From contig CBDCDS010000003.1 in NCBI GenBank assembly GCA_965215365.1, positions 1,120,001-1,184,000 of the forward strand: 64,000 nt of DNA, read 5' to 3'. The notes beneath the pieces were generated by a model that saw only the letters and a list, made by a program, of their open reading frames with translations, was not told where the DNA came from and did not search any database. This document shows, in pieces, positions 4,788-30,017 of the stretch (the stretch's first letter is position 1; each line of letters begins with the position of its first letter). Both the position numbers and the translations under genes were made by a program. The DNA is from Gammaproteobacteria bacterium (GTDB taxonomy: Bacteria > Pseudomonadota > Gammaproteobacteria > Eutrophobiales > Eutrophobiaceae).

Positions 4788-6344
<1,557 letters not shown>

Positions 6345-16406: not shown

Positions 16407-16441
16407 TTAAGTACCTGCAGCATTACCTAGGCAGGGTGGAT

Positions 16442-16496
16442 TGAAAAGCAAAAGATCATCAAAAATGTGGGAAAAGTCACATTTTTGTGAAAAAAG
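16442..16496. promoter_or_regulatory. Orphan copy of the CRP-like palindrome block found in the Uma2 array
   Basis: TGAAAAGCAAAAGATCATCAAAAATGTGGGAAAAGTCACATTTTTGTGAAAAAAG matches 25442-25496. Confidence 0.65.
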
Positions 16497-16514
16497 TTGA
16501 GCGAGGAGGTAGTT

Positions 16515-23791: not shown

Positions 23792-24859
23792 TCATTTGCC
23801 CAAACGACACTTTGCAGGTGCAAAACGCAATTTTATTTCCTTGGATGTTTCAACGGATTCGTAGATTGCAGTGATCAGTTCTAGGCTGCGCCTGCCTTCA
23901 AGTCCGTCAACCAGATGCTGTTTCTGGTTGATGATAGCATCGACAACATGCTTGTAATAGGCCTTGTGACCAAATCCGTAAACATCAGGCGGGTTTACCG
24001 AATACTTTTCAACGACTTCGTGATCTTCGGCAGTTGCCTCAACAAACTCCCAGGTTTTCAACTGGTTAACCGCAAAACCACCAATTTCCACGCTACCCCG
24101 CTCGCCTAGTATGGATAATGAGCCTTCCAGATCTTTTGGCCTTGTGGCTGTGGTAGCTTCGATCAGGCCCAGTGCGCCATTGTTAAATCTCAGGGCGACG
24201 ACAGCCGTATCTTCCGCCTCAATATCAACCAGTGCCGTGGCGCTCATGGCAAAGACACTCTCTACATCCCCCATCATCCACTCAAGCAGGTCTATGTGGT
24301 GGCTCGCCTGGTTTGTCAACACACCGCCATCCAGGGCCCAGGTGCCACGCCATTGATCCTGATCGTAGTAGGACTGCGCCCGGCACCAGCGCACTCGCGC
24401 CGTTCCCAGTACCAGTTTGCCGAAGCGGCCGGCCTCCAGCGCCTCACGGGTCTTTACAACAGGTACATTAAACCGGTTTTGTTTGACAACAAACAGCTTG
24501 CAGCCAGATGAATCACAAGCCGTTATCATGGCATCGGCATCGTCCAGGGTCAAAGCCATGGGTTTTTCGACGATGATATGTTTGCCATAGCGCGCCAGAT
24601 CAATGACATGTTGTGCGTGCCGGCCACTTTCCGTTAACACAACAACAACGTCGATCTCCTCAGACTGCATCATGTCATGCATATTCTCATAGGCCGGCAC
24701 GTTGAATTGACCAGCTGTTTTCATCGCTTTGGCAAGCGTAGTGTCACAAACGGCAGCCAGACTGGCGCCGTCAATTTGATGGTGGCCCAACAGTTCGGAA
24801 TGGCGCTTAGCTATTCTGCCACAGCCAACTAGGGCAAATGTGAGAGTATCTTTTTTCAC
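23792..24859 (-). CDS. Gfo/Idh/MocA (WlbA/WbpB-like) oxidoreductase
   Basis: FALVGCGRI, EKPMAL, VKQNRFN, DGGVLTNQASHHIDL; GTG at 24859 preferred. Confidence 0.88.
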   Translation of the reverse strand: MKKDTLTFALVGCGRIAKRHSELLGHHQIDGASLAAVCDTTLAKAMKTAGQFNVPAYENMHDMMQSEEIDVVVVLTESGRHAQHVIDLARYGKHIIVEKPMALTLDDADAMITACDSSGCKLFVVKQNRFNVPVVKTREALEAGRFGKLVLGTARVRWCRAQSYYDQDQWRGTWALDGGVLTNQASHHIDLLEWMMGDVESVFAMSATALVDIEAEDTAVVALRFNNGALGLIEATTATRPKDLEGSLSILGERGSVEIGGFAVNQLKTWEFVEATAEDHEVVEKYSVNPPDVYGFGHKAYYKHVVDAIINQKQHLVDGLEGRRSLELITAIYESVETSKEIKLRFAPAKCRLGK

Positions 24860-25076
24860 AGCTATAAATTTAACGAATTTGGACAGCGCAGCTGGCCCCA
24901 TCGGGGCAAACTACACGGATGTAGTTTGCAAATCGTCTATCCTGACGATTTGTCATTTTCAAGCACTTACGTGCTTGCTGTTACTGGCAGCATATCCTTA
25001 TGCTGCACGGGTGCTTCTAATCGCACTGGCGACGCATTATATAATGATCCTGGGTACGGACATAGAATTCGATTCA

Positions 25077-25163
25077 GGTCGCAGCAGGGTGACGGCAACC
25101 TTCTTGGATTTGCAGGCAGAGTCAGGGGGGGGGCGGAAACTTGATGCCTCTCTTAACTTGCCT
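25077..25163 (+). pseudogene. Fragment of a Uma2 paralogue
   Basis: VTATFLDLQAESGGGRKLDASLNLP matches VTFLDLQAESKPMEIDMSLNLP in 27012-27803. Confidence 0.75.
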
Positions 25164-25166
25164 TCA

Positions 25167-25413
25167 GAGTATCTCCCGACTTCAACATGCCCATGCCAAA
25201 GGGGGTGGCTTGTAGGAGGTCACCAACCGGATGTCAAACCACCCCCTTGGCGCCCGCAGGCTGTCCTTGATCCGTGGCCACGGCCAATGGAAACCGGGCC
25301 CGCCTGCGGGCATGCAGGCAATCAGCAGTTCCAATTCCTTGCAGCTGATCCACCAGCCCCGGTTGCAGTTGCCAGGTGCAACCACTGGGCCCGTGACCTT
25401 GTTCCCTCAGGCA
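25167..25413 (-). ncRNA. Candidate structured ncRNA (~245 nt), present in all three repeat copies
   Basis: Four stems, minus-strand TAGAAT -10 box, and a frame-breaking but stem-preserving deletion in copy 2; no family recognised. Confidence 0.4.
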
Positions 25414-25462
25414 GTGGTGATTCTATCTGTTTCGGATAACCTGAAAAGCAAAAAATCATCAA

Positions 25463-25484
25463 AAATGTGGGAAAACTCACATTT
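25463..25484. promoter_or_regulatory. CRP-like palindrome AAATGTGG-N6-TCACATTT
   Basis: Core also at 26837-26852, 28186-28201 and 16466-16481. Confidence 0.6.
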
Positions 25485-25575
25485 TTGCGAAAAAAGATGG
25501 CTATTGTGCGCAGCTTCGGCTCCGACAAGACAACAGGGTATCCATTTGTTCGCCGTTCACCACCTAAAGAACTAA

Positions 25576-25590
25576 CCCGCAGATCTCACC
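25576..25590 (+). repeat. Isolated MITE terminal repeat
   Basis: CTAA followed by CCCGCAGATCTCACC. Confidence 0.7.
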
Positions 25591-25644
25591 CCTTGTCATT
25601 TCTGGTATACTCGGCGCAGGTTTTGTTAAAAGTGCGGCGGCCAC

Positions 25645-26463
25645 ATGAATAGCGTTACGGCATTATCGTCTAATCCTTTTTTGCACAGCATCGAAGACAG
25701 GCTGCGCGAGCAACTGAAGGAAACAAAACAGACTTCACTGGGGTCGGAGTATGTGGCGTTTCATGCCAGCCGGGACGATGTGGTTGCCTTGGCTGCATCA
25801 GATATGGTGAATACCTTCCGGCGTGTGGTGCTTGATCCGGTACGGGAACTGGTGGTGCTGATGGCGCCAAGTGGAAGGCACGAGTGGATTTCAGGCGATA
25901 TAGATCGTTTTGCCAGCAGTGTGTGTACCTTGAAGGGGATTAAGATGGAACAGCTGAGGGCCACCCGCTGGCGCCGGGAGAGCGATCCGAAGAACACCGG
26001 CAATGAAGCGGATTGCAGTTTTTATTTCGGCGAAAAAGCGCTTGGTTATGTTGCGGCGCGTGCGCGGAGTGAGGATGAGGATGATGCATATACGTTTCGA
26101 GTGCCGCCGGACCTGGTGGTGGAGATAGGGCTGACCCATGTATCGAAGGAGAAATATCTGAGTTACCGGGACAAGGGCGTAGCCGAATTCTGGCAGTTGA
26201 ATGCGCACCCGCGCAAACAGGGCGGAAGCATGGTAACGGTCGCCTTTCTGGATTTACAGGCACAGCCGAGGCCATTGAAAATTGACACATCACTTAATTT
26301 GCCTAGTGTCACTCCGGTGCACGTTAGCAGGTTTTTTCGCCTGCGGTCTGGAAAATTGCTGGATCATTATGAGGTTATCGAAGCAGTTCGCGCGCTCCTT
26401 GAAGATGACAACAGCGGCATGATGGTTCGTGAGGAAGCCGAAGAATATGAACTTGCAAACTGA
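25645..26463 (+). CDS. Uma2 (DUF820) family PD-(D/E)XK endonuclease, paralogue 1
   Basis: MAPSGRHE, EADCSFY, PPDLVVEIG, KYLSYRDKGVAEFW. Confidence 0.85.
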   Translation: MNSVTALSSNPFLHSIEDRLREQLKETKQTSLGSEYVAFHASRDDVVALAASDMVNTFRRVVLDPVRELVVLMAPSGRHEWISGDIDRFASSVCTLKGIKMEQLRATRWRRESDPKNTGNEADCSFYFGEKALGYVAARARSEDEDDAYTFRVPPDLVVEIGLTHVSKEKYLSYRDKGVAEFWQLNAHPRKQGGSMVTVAFLDLQAQPRPLKIDTSLNLPSVTPVHVSRFFRLRSGKLLDHYEVIEAVRALLEDDNSGMMVREEAEEYELAN

Positions 26464-26548
26464 AGCAAGGACTTACTCATAATACCTAGTCAGTCCTCCG
26501 GCAGCCGCGTTCACTGTCAGTAACAGCCACGATTTTTACCCATTCGGG

Positions 26549-26872
26549 GTATCTCCCGACTTCAACATGCCCATGCCAAAGGGGGTGGCTTGTAGGAGGT
26601 CACCAACCGGATGTCAAACCACCCCCTTGGCGCCCGCAGGCTGTCCTTGATCCGTGGCCACGGCCAATGGAAACCGGGCCCGCCTGCGGGCATGCAGGCA
26701 ATCAGCAGTTCCAGCTGATCCACCAGCCCCGGTTGCAGTTGTCAGGTGCAACCACTGGGCTCGTGACCTTGTTTCCCTCAGGCAATGACGATTCTATCGG
26801 TTTCGGATATCCTGAAAAGCAAAAAATCATCAAAAATGTGGGAAAACTCACATTTTTGTGAAAAAAGATGGC
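26549..26872. repeat. Non-coding repeat, copy 2
   Basis: Left part identical to copy 1; 10-bp loop deletion, 1-bp insertion and a few substitutions. Confidence 0.95.
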
Positions 26873-27011
26873 TATTATGTGCAGCTTCGGCTCCAACGGG
26901 ACAACAGGGCATCCATTTGTTCGCCGTTCATCGCATCAAGAATCGAATTCGTCCCCCGGTCATTTCTGCTACAATTAACGCAGGTTTAATTCAAGGTATG
27001 GGGACGGCGAT

Positions 27012-27803
27012 ATGAACAGTGTTACGGCCTTGCCTGCCAATCTTCTTTTGCAGGACAGGGAAGTTAAAAGTACATCTTTAGGGTCTGGATACGTCGCGTT
27101 TCATGCCAGCCGGGATGAGGTGGTTGCCTTGGCGGCCTCAGACCTGGTGAATACGTTCCGGCGGGTGGTACTCGATCCGGTGCGTGGCCTGGTGATGCTG
27201 ATGTCGCCGAGTGCCGGGCATGATGATGTTTCGGGGGTAATAGATGATTTTGTCGGCAGCGTTACCACCTTGAAGAAAATTAAGACAAAAAAACTGCGTG
27301 CTACCCGCTGGCGTCAGGAGAATGAACCGAAGAACACCGGTAATGAAGCAGATTGCAGTTTTTACTTTGGTGACAAGGCTCGGGGTTTCGCAAAAGCGAG
27401 TTCGATGAGTATTGAGGAAGGCGATGCTTACTCGTTCAAGGTGCCGCCAGACCTGGTGGTTGAGGTTGGGCTTACCCATGTATCAAAGCAGAAGTACCTG
27501 AGTTATCGGGACAAGGGAGTGGTCGAGCTCTGGCAGTTGAATGCCCGTTCTCACAGGCAGGGTCACAGGATAATGACAGTGACCTTTTTGGATTTGCAGG
27601 CGGAGTCGAAGCCGATGGAAATTGACATGTCACTTAATCTTCCCGATGTCACGCCTGCTCACGTTGCCAGGTTCATACGAGAACAGTCTGGAAAATTACT
27701 GGATCATTATGAGGTTATCGAAGCAGTTCGCGCACTCCTTGAAGATGACAACAGCGGCATGATGGTTCGTGAGGAAGCCGAAGAGTACGAGGCCGCAAGC
27801 TGA
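27012..27803 (+). CDS. Uma2 family endonuclease, paralogue 2
   Basis: MSPSAGHD, EADCSFY, PPDLVVEVG, KYLSYRDKGVVELW. Confidence 0.85.
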   Translation: MNSVTALPANLLLQDREVKSTSLGSGYVAFHASRDEVVALAASDLVNTFRRVVLDPVRGLVMLMSPSAGHDDVSGVIDDFVGSVTTLKKIKTKKLRATRWRQENEPKNTGNEADCSFYFGDKARGFAKASSMSIEEGDAYSFKVPPDLVVEVGLTHVSKQKYLSYRDKGVVELWQLNARSHRQGHRIMTVTFLDLQAESKPMEIDMSLNLPDVTPAHVARFIREQSGKLLDHYEVIEAVRALLEDDNSGMMVREEAEEYEAAS

Positions 27804-27886
27804 AGCAAGGGCTTACCTGTAATGTCTGGCAGGTCCTACGGCAGCCACGCTTGCCGGGAATGATAGCCAGGATTTTTATTGCCTCG

Positions 27887-28221
27887 GAGTATCTCCCGAC
27901 TTCAACATGCCCATGCCAAAGGGGGTGGCTTGTAGGAGGTCACCAACCGGATGTCAAACCACCCCCTTGGCGCCCGCAGGCTGTCCTTGATCCGTGGCCA
28001 CGGCCAATGGAAACCGGGCCCGCCTGCGGGCATGCAGGCAATCAGCAGTTCCAATTCCTTGCAGCTGATCCACCAGCCCCGGTTGCAGTTGCCAGGTGCA
28101 ACCACTGGGCCCGTGACCTTGTTCCCTCAGGCAGTGGTGATTCTATCTGTTTCGGATAACCTGAAAAGCAAAAAATCATCAAAAATGTGGGAAAACTCAC
28201 ATTTTTGTGAAAAAAGATGGC
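27887..28221. repeat. Non-coding repeat, copy 3
   Basis: One difference from copy 1 (offset 2720). Confidence 0.95.
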
Positions 28222-28360
28222 AGTCGCGCGCAGTTTTGCTCTTCAACAGGGCGAGAAGGCATCTGTTTGTTCGCCATTCACCGCCTGAAGAACCTGAAGC
28301 GCCGCTTGTCATTTCTGCTATACTCAACCTAGGTTTTATGCAAACTACGACGGCAGCTAC

Positions 28361-28576
28361 ATGAACAGCGTTACGGCGTTATCGGCTAATCCTTTTTTGC
28401 GCAGCATCGAAGACAGGCTACGTGAGCGACTGGGGGACATGCAATGCACTGCCTTTGGCTCGGAGTACGTTGCGTTCCATGCCAGCCGGGATGAGGCAGT
28501 TCGCAATCTCCTTGAAGACAGGAACAGTGGCATGATGATTCGTGAGGAAGCAGAAGAATACGAACTTGTAAGCTGA
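28361..28576 (+). pseudogene. Uma2 paralogue 3 with an in-frame deletion of the whole nuclease core
   Basis: N-terminus (...FHASRDE) fused directly to the C-terminal tail (AVRNLLEDRNSGMMIREEAEEYE). Confidence 0.85.
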
Positions 28577-28597
28577 GGCAAGGGCTTACCCATCTGC

Positions 28598-29470
28598 ATG
28601 CATCGTATAGCTATAACAGGAGCGGGCGGATTCATTGGAACGCACTTGAGCAGGCATTTGGACACCCGGGGTTTTAATTTTGTGACCATGAGGAGGACGG
28701 AAAATGATTTCATTTATCCGCCGAACCCGGAGGCATTTGACTCAATTATCCATCTGGCAGCCAGAGCGCATAAGAAAAAAAGCCAAAAGACCAAACTATC
28801 CTATACGTTGAACCTTGCCGAAAAGGCTATCAATTCCAACGTAAGGCAGTTCATCTTTATAAGTTCCATAGGGGTGTTGGGAGAGTTTTCCGGGAGTTCA
28901 CCCTTTAACTCCGATAGCCCATATAATCCTTATAACGATTATTCGATCTCAAAAATGGAGGCGGAAGAAGCGATAAAACGGGTCTTTCATGGTACTGATG
29001 TAAAGTGGACAATTATCAGACCCCCTCTGGTTTATGGCACTGGCGCAAAAGGGAACTTTAGAACGCTCAGTAATTTGGTCCAGAGAGTGCCGATTATGCC
29101 TCTGGGCTCAATCAAAGCAGTACGCTCCTTTTGTTCGGTAAACAATTTATGTGATCTGATTATTAATTGTTTGGGTAATGAGAGATCATATAGCCAGACA
29201 TTTCTTGTCAGTGATGACATTAGTTTAGCTCTGACAGATATGATTAAGATGCTTTACAGGAGTCTGGATAAGTCCTGTTGGCTCGTCCCCGTCCCTTATC
29301 CTCTCATGTATCTGGCGGGTTTGATTACCGGTAAAACTCAGGCCTTGAGAAAACTGAACAGTTCACTGACTCTGGACATCAGTCACACAAAAGAAACCTT
29401 GGGCTGGCGGCCACCTTATGCTATGGAAGCGGAAATCAGAAAGGCATTAAATGATGATCAGGCTGTTTGA
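28598..29470 (+). CDS. NAD-dependent epimerase/dehydratase
   Basis: TGAGGFIG, IHLAARAH, YSISK, RPPLVYG. Confidence 0.88.
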   Translation: MHRIAITGAGGFIGTHLSRHLDTRGFNFVTMRRTENDFIYPPNPEAFDSIIHLAARAHKKKSQKTKLSYTLNLAEKAINSNVRQFIFISSIGVLGEFSGSSPFNSDSPYNPYNDYSISKMEAEEAIKRVFHGTDVKWTIIRPPLVYGTGAKGNFRTLSNLVQRVPIMPLGSIKAVRSFCSVNNLCDLIINCLGNERSYSQTFLVSDDISLALTDMIKMLYRSLDKSCWLVPVPYPLMYLAGLITGKTQALRKLNSSLTLDISHTKETLGWRPPYAMEAEIRKALNDDQAV

Positions 29471-30017
29471 TATCTTACTATCCATTACTGCCCTGATCTT
29501 GCTGGCACCGTTCATGGTTGTGATTTATCTGTTGATTATGGCCGAAACCAGAGACCCCGTATACGTTCAGGAAAGGGTCGGTTATAAACAACGAGCATTC
29601 ATTCTTTATAAATTTCGCACCATGAAATCCAACACCCCCTCACTGGCTACACATCTGGTCAGTGAGAGTGCTTTGACGGTGACGGGCAGATTGTTGAGAA
29701 AAACCAAATTCGATGAATTGCCGCAACTGATTAACGTACTCAGGGGCGAGATGAGTCTGGTGGGGCCGAGACCATGTTTGTTCAACCAGTCGGAACTTAT
29801 TCTTGCCCGTGACAGGCTTGGGGTTTTCCAGGTGCTGCCTGGCATAACCGGTTTGTCTCAACTCAGAAAGATTGACATGTCCATGCCAGAACTGCTTGCC
29901 AGCTCGGATGCTGAGATGATTAGTGGTTTTTCGCTTGCCAGATATTTCCAATACCTTGTTTTAACAGCATTGGGTCTGGGCGCCGGTGATCGAGTTGATA
30001 AAAATCCCGTTAAGTGA
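29451..30017 (+). CDS. Bacterial sugar transferase (initiating phosphoglycosyl transferase)
   Basis: RLFDI, KFRTM, DELPQLINVLRGEMSLVGPRP, PGITG. Confidence 0.9.
   Translation: MMIRLFDILLSITALILLAPFMVVIYLLIMAETRDPVYVQERVGYKQRAFILYKFRTMKSNTPSLATHLVSESALTVTGRLLRKTKFDELPQLINVLRGEMSLVGPRPCLFNQSELILARDRLGVFQVLPGITGLSQLRKIDMSMPELLASSDAEMISGFSLARYFQYLVLTALGLGAGDRVDKNPVK

Follow-up and report, generated by a model that had tools for sequence, protein, structure and literature searches.

The locus at positions 25077 to 28576 of the stretch of DNA analyzed here (hereafter the window, 64,000 nucleotides (nt) in total) raises the question of what kind of element alternates with its Uma2-like putative nuclease genes, and whether that element belongs to these genes functionally. 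The window contains three direct repeats of approx. 335 nt (25164-25500, 26549-26871 and 27884-28220), which recur at intervals of 1380 and 1340 bp and alternate with diverged Uma2-like open reading frames (ORFs) on the plus strand; narrower limits of 25164-25463, 26544-26843 and 27884-28183 were also obtained for them. In a search of its own genome the repeat gave matches of 100, 99 and 94% over 337 nt and no other full copies. Copies 1 and 3 differ by a single base inside 25167-25501, and copy 2 carries a 10-nt deletion, which falls in the loop of a hairpin designated H3 below. An initial annotation had described this order and spacing as well as the single-base difference and the deletion, all of which we re-found; it had further proposed that each unit encodes an RNA dedicated to the neighboring nuclease. 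Our analyses indicate that the repeat is a member of a non-coding family confined to one genus of uncultured Gammaproteobacteria, that it is probably transcribed from the minus strand as an RNA of ~230 nt (25413 to ~25187 in copy 1), and that this RNA gene is very probably not specific to Uma2.

Family, fold and strand of the element

BLAST searches against relatives of the window's genome found full-length homologues with 70-88% identity, often arrayed, in the window's genus only. An exact-pattern scan of approx. 186,000 species genomes returned 61 loci, and a profile search of these loci located the element in 37, yielding 44 full-length candidates plus more divergent copies, all of them from metagenome-assembled Gammaproteobacteria. 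When a covariance model built from 24 copies (R1) was run against 126 genomes of the same bacterial family, the element was detected in 20 of the 23 genomes of the genus, with 1-9 copies each, and in none of the 103 genomes representing 33 other genera. A single match was found in 10 of the 20 positive genomes, and those single matches that could be placed adjoin proS and/or an ilvB-like gene; the window's genome carries only the three window copies. A further subfamily (loci L086, L091, L067 and L100) has longer common flanks, and one of its members adjoins an IS605 OrfB-type helix-turn-helix (HTH) fragment.

The initial annotation had recognized no RNA family in the repeat, and a search of Rfam with window positions 24000-30000 on both strands likewise gave no match at E ≤ 1; the same search with six further loci gave just two irrelevant weak matches. 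Literature searches on Uma2/DUF820 and on CsrA, GGA motifs and CRP sites yielded no account of the element, no search by organism name having been made. A protein-coding reading of the repeat was ruled out by its ORFs, which had no Pfam match, and by 1- and 2-nt indels within conserved parts.

As RNAalifold gave poor consensus structures on plain MAFFT alignments, helices were written by hand on one reference and 47 distinct sequences were re-aligned to covariance models; these alignments thus lean towards structure. The resulting fold spans ~230 nt and has eight helices, with three hairpins at the 5' end (H1, H2 and H3), followed by a three-way junction where P2a/P2b and a long P1 hairpin are enclosed by P0. 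Paired cells accounted for 89.4% across the 47 sequences, as compared to 31.6-51.4% with slid partners and a mean of 81.3% after shuffling. Changes on both sides were observed for 33 of the 59 pairs (slid partners, 11-19; shuffle mean, 23.2, with none of 500 shuffles reaching 33), and the covariation score was 0.234 (slid partners, 0.044-0.079; shuffle mean, 0.125). Each helix contains at least one compensatory pair, and compensatory changes span copies that share just ~60-70% identity. This covariation among homologues, above both slid and shuffled controls, supports the earlier proposal that the repeat is a structured non-coding element. Of the four stems drawn at that time, stems 1, 2 and 4 correspond to P1, P2a and the top of H2, and stem 3 represents this lineage's version of H3. 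Shortened members, consisting mainly of the P0-P2-P1 junction domain (model positions ~94-228), were observed at L085 2938-3061, L103 2959-3083 and L107 2934-3076.

The strand was assessed by comparing the minus-strand covariance model to a mirror model built on the plus strand. Both the percentage of paired cells (89.4% for minus vs. 86.5% for plus) and the covariation score (0.234 vs. 0.185) favored the minus strand. The minus-fitted alignment contained 176 G.U and 92 A.C cells, and the plus-fitted alignment, with 101 G.U and 169 A.C cells, mirrored this bias; the initial annotation had rightly pointed out that a C.A mismatch turns into a G.U pair on the minus strand. Among divergent copies outside the seed, 13 of 14 scored higher with the minus-strand model. 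At its center P2a has a mismatch that is a tandem G.A when read on the minus strand and U.C when read on the plus strand. Since pairing, wobble bias, model scores and the promoter module described below agree, a minus-strand RNA represents the best reading of the element. Its transcription, strand and ends are predictions, the -10 box having been used to set the start and the last helix to set the end. An RNA on this strand would be opposite to Uma2, i.e., its gene would point away from the Uma2 gene that follows it and towards the one that comes before.

Promoter module and GGA motifs

The family alignment begins sharply at CATGCCC (25187 in copy 1), and the plus-strand 5' flanks beyond it belong to at least five unrelated families. 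On the minus strand, a promoter scan identified TTTTCA-16-TAGAAT in each window copy, with a weak -35 element. A TAnnnT hexamer is present in all 44 copies (TAAAAT in 31, TACAAT in 5, TAGAAT in 4 and TAAGAT in 4), and 40 of the 44 also carry a TGTG-N8-CACA box (core TGTGA-N6-TCACA) whose center precedes the hexamer by exactly 48 nt in every case (40 of 40) and is therefore near -60/-61. Class I activation by CRP classically occurs from position -61.5, and the CRP core consensus is TGTGA-N6-TCACA; the geometry thus fits a predicted sigma-70-type promoter that depends on a class I activator of the CRP/FNR type. The predicted RNA genes of the window and their promoter modules are as follows.

25187-25413, minus strand: small RNA copy 1 (predicted transcript); covariance-model match 25179-25419, 168.9 bits; fold z = -2.5
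25420-25447, minus strand: promoter of copy 1, TTTTCA, 16 nt, TAGAAT; promoter scan
25466-25481, no strand assigned: palindromic box of copy 1, TGTGG-N6-TCACA, center 48 nt upstream of the -10 box
26563-26784, minus strand: small RNA copy 2 (predicted transcript); model match 26559-26790, 167.5 bits; carries the 10-nt H3-loop deletion
26791-26818 and 26837-26852, minus strand: promoter and box of copy 2; promoter scan
27907-28133, minus strand: small RNA copy 3 (predicted transcript); model match 27899-28139, 168.9 bits
28140-28167 and 28186-28201, minus strand: promoter and box of copy 3; promoter scan

Divergent copies retain the TGTGA/TCACA core, but the A/T runs on either side of it are no longer complementary; the palindrome is therefore read as a protein-binding DNA site and not as an RNA hairpin. 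On the same grounds, its listing by a scan as a minus-strand intrinsic terminator was rejected. The 2.73-Mb genome contains only nine TGTGA-N6-TCACA sites, all of them inside the same extended module. The box recognized by GacA/UvrY is TGTAAG-N6-CTTACA, and a GacA-box reading of the palindrome was not supported, given its CRP-type spacing and the lack of a UvrY/GacA orthologue in the genome at the cut-off (best score 41 bits vs. 280).

Solo promoter modules, consisting of the box and TTTTCA and lacking the structured RNA part, were observed at 16423-16498 of the window and elsewhere in its genome (G000), i.e., at G000:C3:644569-644638, C3:1554606-1554675 and C3:1649579-1649648 as well as at C2:5173-5231 and 5879-5937. 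At the first of these (G000:C3:644569-644638, locus L117) the box is followed by a short hairpin with a U-run, and next comes a small gene whose start looks like a signal peptide; by eye only, this gene resembles one for a ComEA-type DNA-uptake protein. A second candidate small RNA with GGA loops and the same module (G000:C3:1554459-1554689, L116/L128) was discarded, as the part that forms its hairpins belongs to a repeat of high copy number (34 matches in G000 and 35 in the related genome G006). In G006 the module also occurs without this insert.

Counts of GGA on the minus strand of 43 copies revealed four conserved unpaired A-N-GGA motifs. The H1 loop has one of them in 40 of 43 copies and the H3 loop another in 39 of 43, while the P2 internal loop carries the tandem CA-N-GGAUCA-N-GGACA, with GGA in all 43 copies and two occurrences in 42. 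At each motif the base preceding GGA varies, whereas the A ahead of that base and GGA itself are kept. On average a copy contains 6.4 GGA as compared to 3.6 TCC, and 199 of the 277 GGA occurrences fall fully in unpaired columns. CsrA/RsmA recognizes A-N-GGA presented in loops, and csrA is present in the window's genome and in 22 of the 23 genomes of the genus. Genome-wide searches for RsmY, RsmZ and CsrB stayed below the Rfam gathering scores; CsrC and RsmX were not searched genome-wide.

Uma2-like genes, copy identity and recombination

The Uma2-like sequences that alternate with the predicted RNA genes differ in how well they are preserved.

25077-25165, plus strand: Uma2 gene fragment (~residues 193-221), fused directly to copy 1
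25645-26463, plus strand: Uma2-like gene 1, 272 amino acids, putative nuclease; Pfam PF05685 (Uma2) E = 2.4e-6, 27.6 bits, cut-off 27
27012-27803, plus strand: Uma2-like gene 2, 263 amino acids; 70% identity to gene 1 (tblastn)
28361-28576, plus strand: Uma2-like gene 3, 71 amino acids; tblastn aligns residues 1-47 and 246-270 only, i.e., internally deleted

Gene 2 had no Pfam or NCBIfam match of its own, and its membership follows only from its identity to gene 1; a relative in locus L039 scored 25.4 bits for Pfam Uma2, slightly below the cut-off. A run of nine G (25124-25132) lies where the Uma2 fragment meets copy 1, and is one base shorter in a sequencing run (X5) of a related strain.

Positions 25204-25323 show 100% identity in all three copy pairs, and copies 1 and 3 remain 97-100% identical up to ~25500, as compared to 58-85% identity between units for the Uma2 coding DNA; the stronger conservation of the non-coding part claimed in the initial annotation was thus borne out. 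The last ~70-100 nt of the Uma2 genes (26380-26480, 27720-27820 and 28493-28593) are 83-93% alike and thus above the rest of these genes, and this well-conserved 3' end is retained even in the internally deleted gene 3.

The possibility that the identity of the copies is an assembly artefact, which had been raised in the initial annotation, was examined using the k-mer depth of independently built contigs from three runs of a single study. Contigs over 25169-25333 had ~3x the depth of unique flanks (89 vs. 28.8, 494 vs. 163 and 908 vs. 379), and contigs over 25304-25469, a segment common to copies 1 and 3, had ~2x the flank depth (60 and 331). These depths match the number of copies that share each segment, and the identity is not artefactual.

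At the same polysaccharide locus, genome G006 carries four copies which share no more than 78-88% identity with copy 1 of the window, and the extreme identity of the copies is therefore peculiar to the window's genome. The junction of Uma2 fragment and repeat recurs in G006 (L036 13204-13290), and the gene order of the two genomes differs exactly at repeat borders, with a three-gene operon between copies 3 and 4 in G006 where the array is contiguous in G000. In run X5, one contig joins 26463 to 28424, skipping 1960 bp, with a depth of 6.3 vs. ~20 around it, which points to a shortened array in the X5 population. Given the order changes at repeat borders and this contig, the repeat copies are substrates of homologous recombination.

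Purifying selection cannot give identity this exact. Recent gene conversion or unequal crossing-over appears to be the best explanation for the 100% identity beside old, diverged Uma2 genes, and the non-coding element would be more conserved than the adjacent gene because an RNA gene found across the genus underwent gene conversion locally. We propose that a block of RNA gene and Uma2 would have been amplified inside the polysaccharide cluster via tandem duplication and unequal recombination, and that the RNA copies would afterwards have been homogenized through gene conversion, producing identical RNA genes next to coding DNA that retained its divergence.

Genomic neighbors and competing readings

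Neighboring genes were assessed for 44 distinct full-length copies, using a limit of 450 nt for linkage to Uma2. Among the most divergent copies, proS (encoding prolyl-tRNA synthetase) is located on the downstream side of the RNA at 7 loci and an acetolactate-synthase-like (ilvB-like) thiamine pyrophosphate (TPP) enzyme on the other side at 6 loci, with both flanks present in 5; in the window's genome, proS is present without the element beside it. Other neighbors include genes for PIN, ParE, DUF3782/Hjc-like PD-(D/E)XK and DUF6338 proteins, an MmeI-type enzyme and a D12 methyltransferase, as well as DUF4143 ATPases, glycosyltransferases, DegT and a GFO/IDH/MocA oxidoreductase. We read the proS-linked form as old and vertically inherited, and the copies in variable regions as a younger, expanded subfamily, which would have spread into polysaccharide clusters and among toxin-antitoxin and defense genes. 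The proS-linked form was also considered as a proS leader or T-box; this was not supported, as the proS-linked loci L065, L079 and L099 gave no relevant Rfam match at E ≤ 1 and a promoter-like sequence intervenes before proS.

The initial annotation had assigned each repeat to its nuclease as scaffold, antitoxin or regulator, and such a dedicated partnership, even if limited to the Uma2-linked subfamily, appears very improbable on the neighbor counts. A Uma2 start lies within 450 nt after 11 of the 44 copies, in four genomes (G000, G006, G018 and G002), and 6 of these 11 also face a Uma2 3' end; Uma2 is found on at least one side of 13 copies and on neither side of 31. The earlier claim is thus not upheld, nor is RNA-nuclease pairing supported as a new system. 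What speaks for a partnership is that the block of repeat and Uma2 recurs in all four of these genomes, once at a separate locus (L039 in G018), and that an RNA extending past its last helix would reach the preceding Uma2 gene, ~100 nt off, and run antisense to the 3' end of that gene. A DUF820 protein also appears among the RNA-chaperone candidates from Grad-seq in Synechocystis, although the authors of that report themselves consider nucleic acids other than RNA to be its likelier ligands (PMC8136920). Against a partnership, in addition to the 31 copies without the gene, the syntenic proS/ilvB-like copies have no Uma2 nearby, the RNA strand is opposite to Uma2, and the RNA copy that goes with the third Uma2 gene is intact and identical to copy 1 even though that gene has an internal deletion. 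The main alternative to a free small RNA, which we nevertheless consider unlikely, is that the element acts in cis, as a portable promoter with a long 5' leader controlling the downstream minus-strand gene, possibly under CsrA control via its GGA sites. The next ORF on the downstream side of the RNA is co-directional for 25 of 42 copies (e.g., PIN, ParE, DUF3782/Hjc-like nuclease, DUF6338, a GFO/IDH/MocA operon and proS) and convergent for the other 17; window copy 1 itself faces an operon of oxidoreductase, DegT and glycosyltransferase genes, and a leader would fit with the lack of a detectable terminator beyond the last helix. However, no function is common to the downstream genes, as it would be for genes controlled by riboswitches or dedicated leaders, and in proS-linked copies a separate promoter-like sequence (TGn-extended TATAAT, by eye) lies between the element and proS.

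Conservation might also reside in the DNA only, i.e., in a regulatory or recombination region made up of a transcription-factor site and hairpin-forming DNA, with copies kept identical via gene conversion and no functional RNA produced. The palindrome is clearly a DNA site, the copies do recombine (as seen in the order change between G000 and G006 at repeat borders and the X5 contig from 26463 to 28424), and the 100% identity observed here requires gene conversion and not selection. This explanation appears very unlikely to us all the same, as it leaves aside the compensatory changes in all eight helices, the wobble-pair excess on one strand and the -10 box, which keeps the same distance in all 44 copies, and as the element has no terminal inverted repeats. 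Transcription from the plus strand, co-directional with Uma2, would yield an RNA with UCC-rich loops that could pair with ribosome-binding sites. The 337-nt plus strand, a stretch that includes the palindrome, folds with z = -4.4 as compared to -2.9 for the minus strand; moreover, the helices are mostly Watson-Crick and fit either strand, and the plus model scores about equally on close copies. Wobble bias, pairing percentage, covariation and 13 of the 14 held-out scores nevertheless favor the minus strand, where the promoter is conserved; the plus strand has no conserved promoter, its 5' flanks belong to the unrelated families described above, and the promoter scan finds none on it in the repeats. 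We thus regard plus-strand transcription as highly improbable.

Taken as a whole, our reading of the element as a regulated multi-copy small-RNA gene family, possibly a CsrA sponge and amplified here with Uma2, is one that we consider evenly poised between right and wrong. The RNA would act in trans, offering its A-N-GGA motifs to CsrA as a sponge or decoy, and would not be a partner of Uma2. Several observations weigh against this reading. The structural alignments were fitted to the models and thereby favor pairing, many copies are close relatives, so that cell counts overstate the number of independent events, and single-sequence fold z-scores are modest (~-2.5). The sole CRP/FNR-family protein encoded in the genome (L119:1033-1764) matches the CRP model weakly, with 53 bits vs. 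a cut-off of 266. Having a single gene family beside 11 of the 44 copies is more than would be expected by chance; block duplication explains this excess, with a functional link for that subfamily remaining conceivable. Four conserved motifs in ~230 nt represent a low GGA density for a sponge, long G+C-rich helices are untypical of a CsrA sponge, no intrinsic terminator was found after the last helix, and the csrA-bearing genomes G010, G012 and G017 of the genus gave no match under stricter filters. Because of these last four points, CsrA binding by the predicted RNA is proposed tentatively, with the balance somewhat against it. We are likewise doubtful of the broader proposal that these RNAs form a class of CsrA-titrating small RNA that is independent of GacA and new to description. 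Under this proposal the RNA would be switched on via a CRP/FNR-type box, cassettes would multiply together with PD-(D/E)XK nuclease, toxin-antitoxin and polysaccharide genes, and tandem amplification and gene conversion in variable islands would tune RNA dosage and the CsrA regulon.

The element is in no curated family; among known systems, its nearest counterparts appear to be decoy RNAs of the Csr/Rsm type and small RNAs controlled by CRP. With the Csr/Rsm RNAs (CsrB/CsrC and RsmX/RsmY/RsmZ) it would share a non-coding nature, often in multiple copies, A-N-GGA motifs in hairpin loops or single strands, a palindromic activator site upstream of the promoter and a host that has CsrA. It differs from them in its lack of an Rfam match, its four GGA motifs in ~230 nt, its long G+C-rich helices and three-way junction, its TGTGA-N6-TCACA box in a genome with no UvrY/GacA orthologue, and the lack of a detected terminator. 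CRP-cAMP is described as regulating CsrB and CsrC differentially in Salmonella (PMC7591399), and RsmY and RsmZ as being under GacA control in Pseudomonas (PMC2375449). If our reading is correct, the element would represent a missing piece of the Csr network in an uncultured genus known mostly from metagenome-assembled genomes, supplying an RNA where CsrA is encoded but no sponge RNA or GacA was recognized. It would also provide a covariation-supported fold unlike those of known Csr/Rsm RNAs, and an example of a small-RNA gene moving from a housekeeping locus into variable islands. CyaR is a small RNA activated by CRP. The element resembles it in having a CRP-consensus-like site at an activator position upstream of a sigma-70 promoter; it differs in being much longer, more structured and multi-copy, and in sharing no sequence or Rfam similarity.

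The alternation of a repeated non-coding element with putative nuclease genes also resembles type III toxin-antitoxin systems (ToxIN-like). A ToxIN-like array was rejected, however, as there are no short direct repeats co-transcribed with a toxin; each gene is accompanied by one ~230-nt unit on the opposite strand with its own promoter, and most members of the family have no nuclease gene. Miniature inverted-repeat transposable elements (MITEs) and repeats of the repetitive extragenic palindromic (REP) and bacterial interspersed mosaic element (BIME) type are likewise repeated, hairpin-rich and non-coding. The family differs from these in its 1-9 copies per genome, its conserved promoter and its syntenic housekeeping locus. 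The initial annotation had considered that the repeat might turn out to be a plain MITE, scattered without linkage to Uma2. The weak linkage did emerge, with 31 of 44 copies away from the gene, whereas a MITE was rejected given the three copies in the genome and the lack of terminal inverted repeats (internal hairpins only; target-site duplications were not looked at). An unrelated short repeat that is high-copy and MITE-like does occur nearby, between RNA copy 1 and the oxidoreductase operon.

24900-25021, no strand assigned: unrelated high-copy short repeat, MITE-like; 65 blastn matches in the genome

Contigs covering this short repeat had 14-21x the depth of their flanks in study P1.

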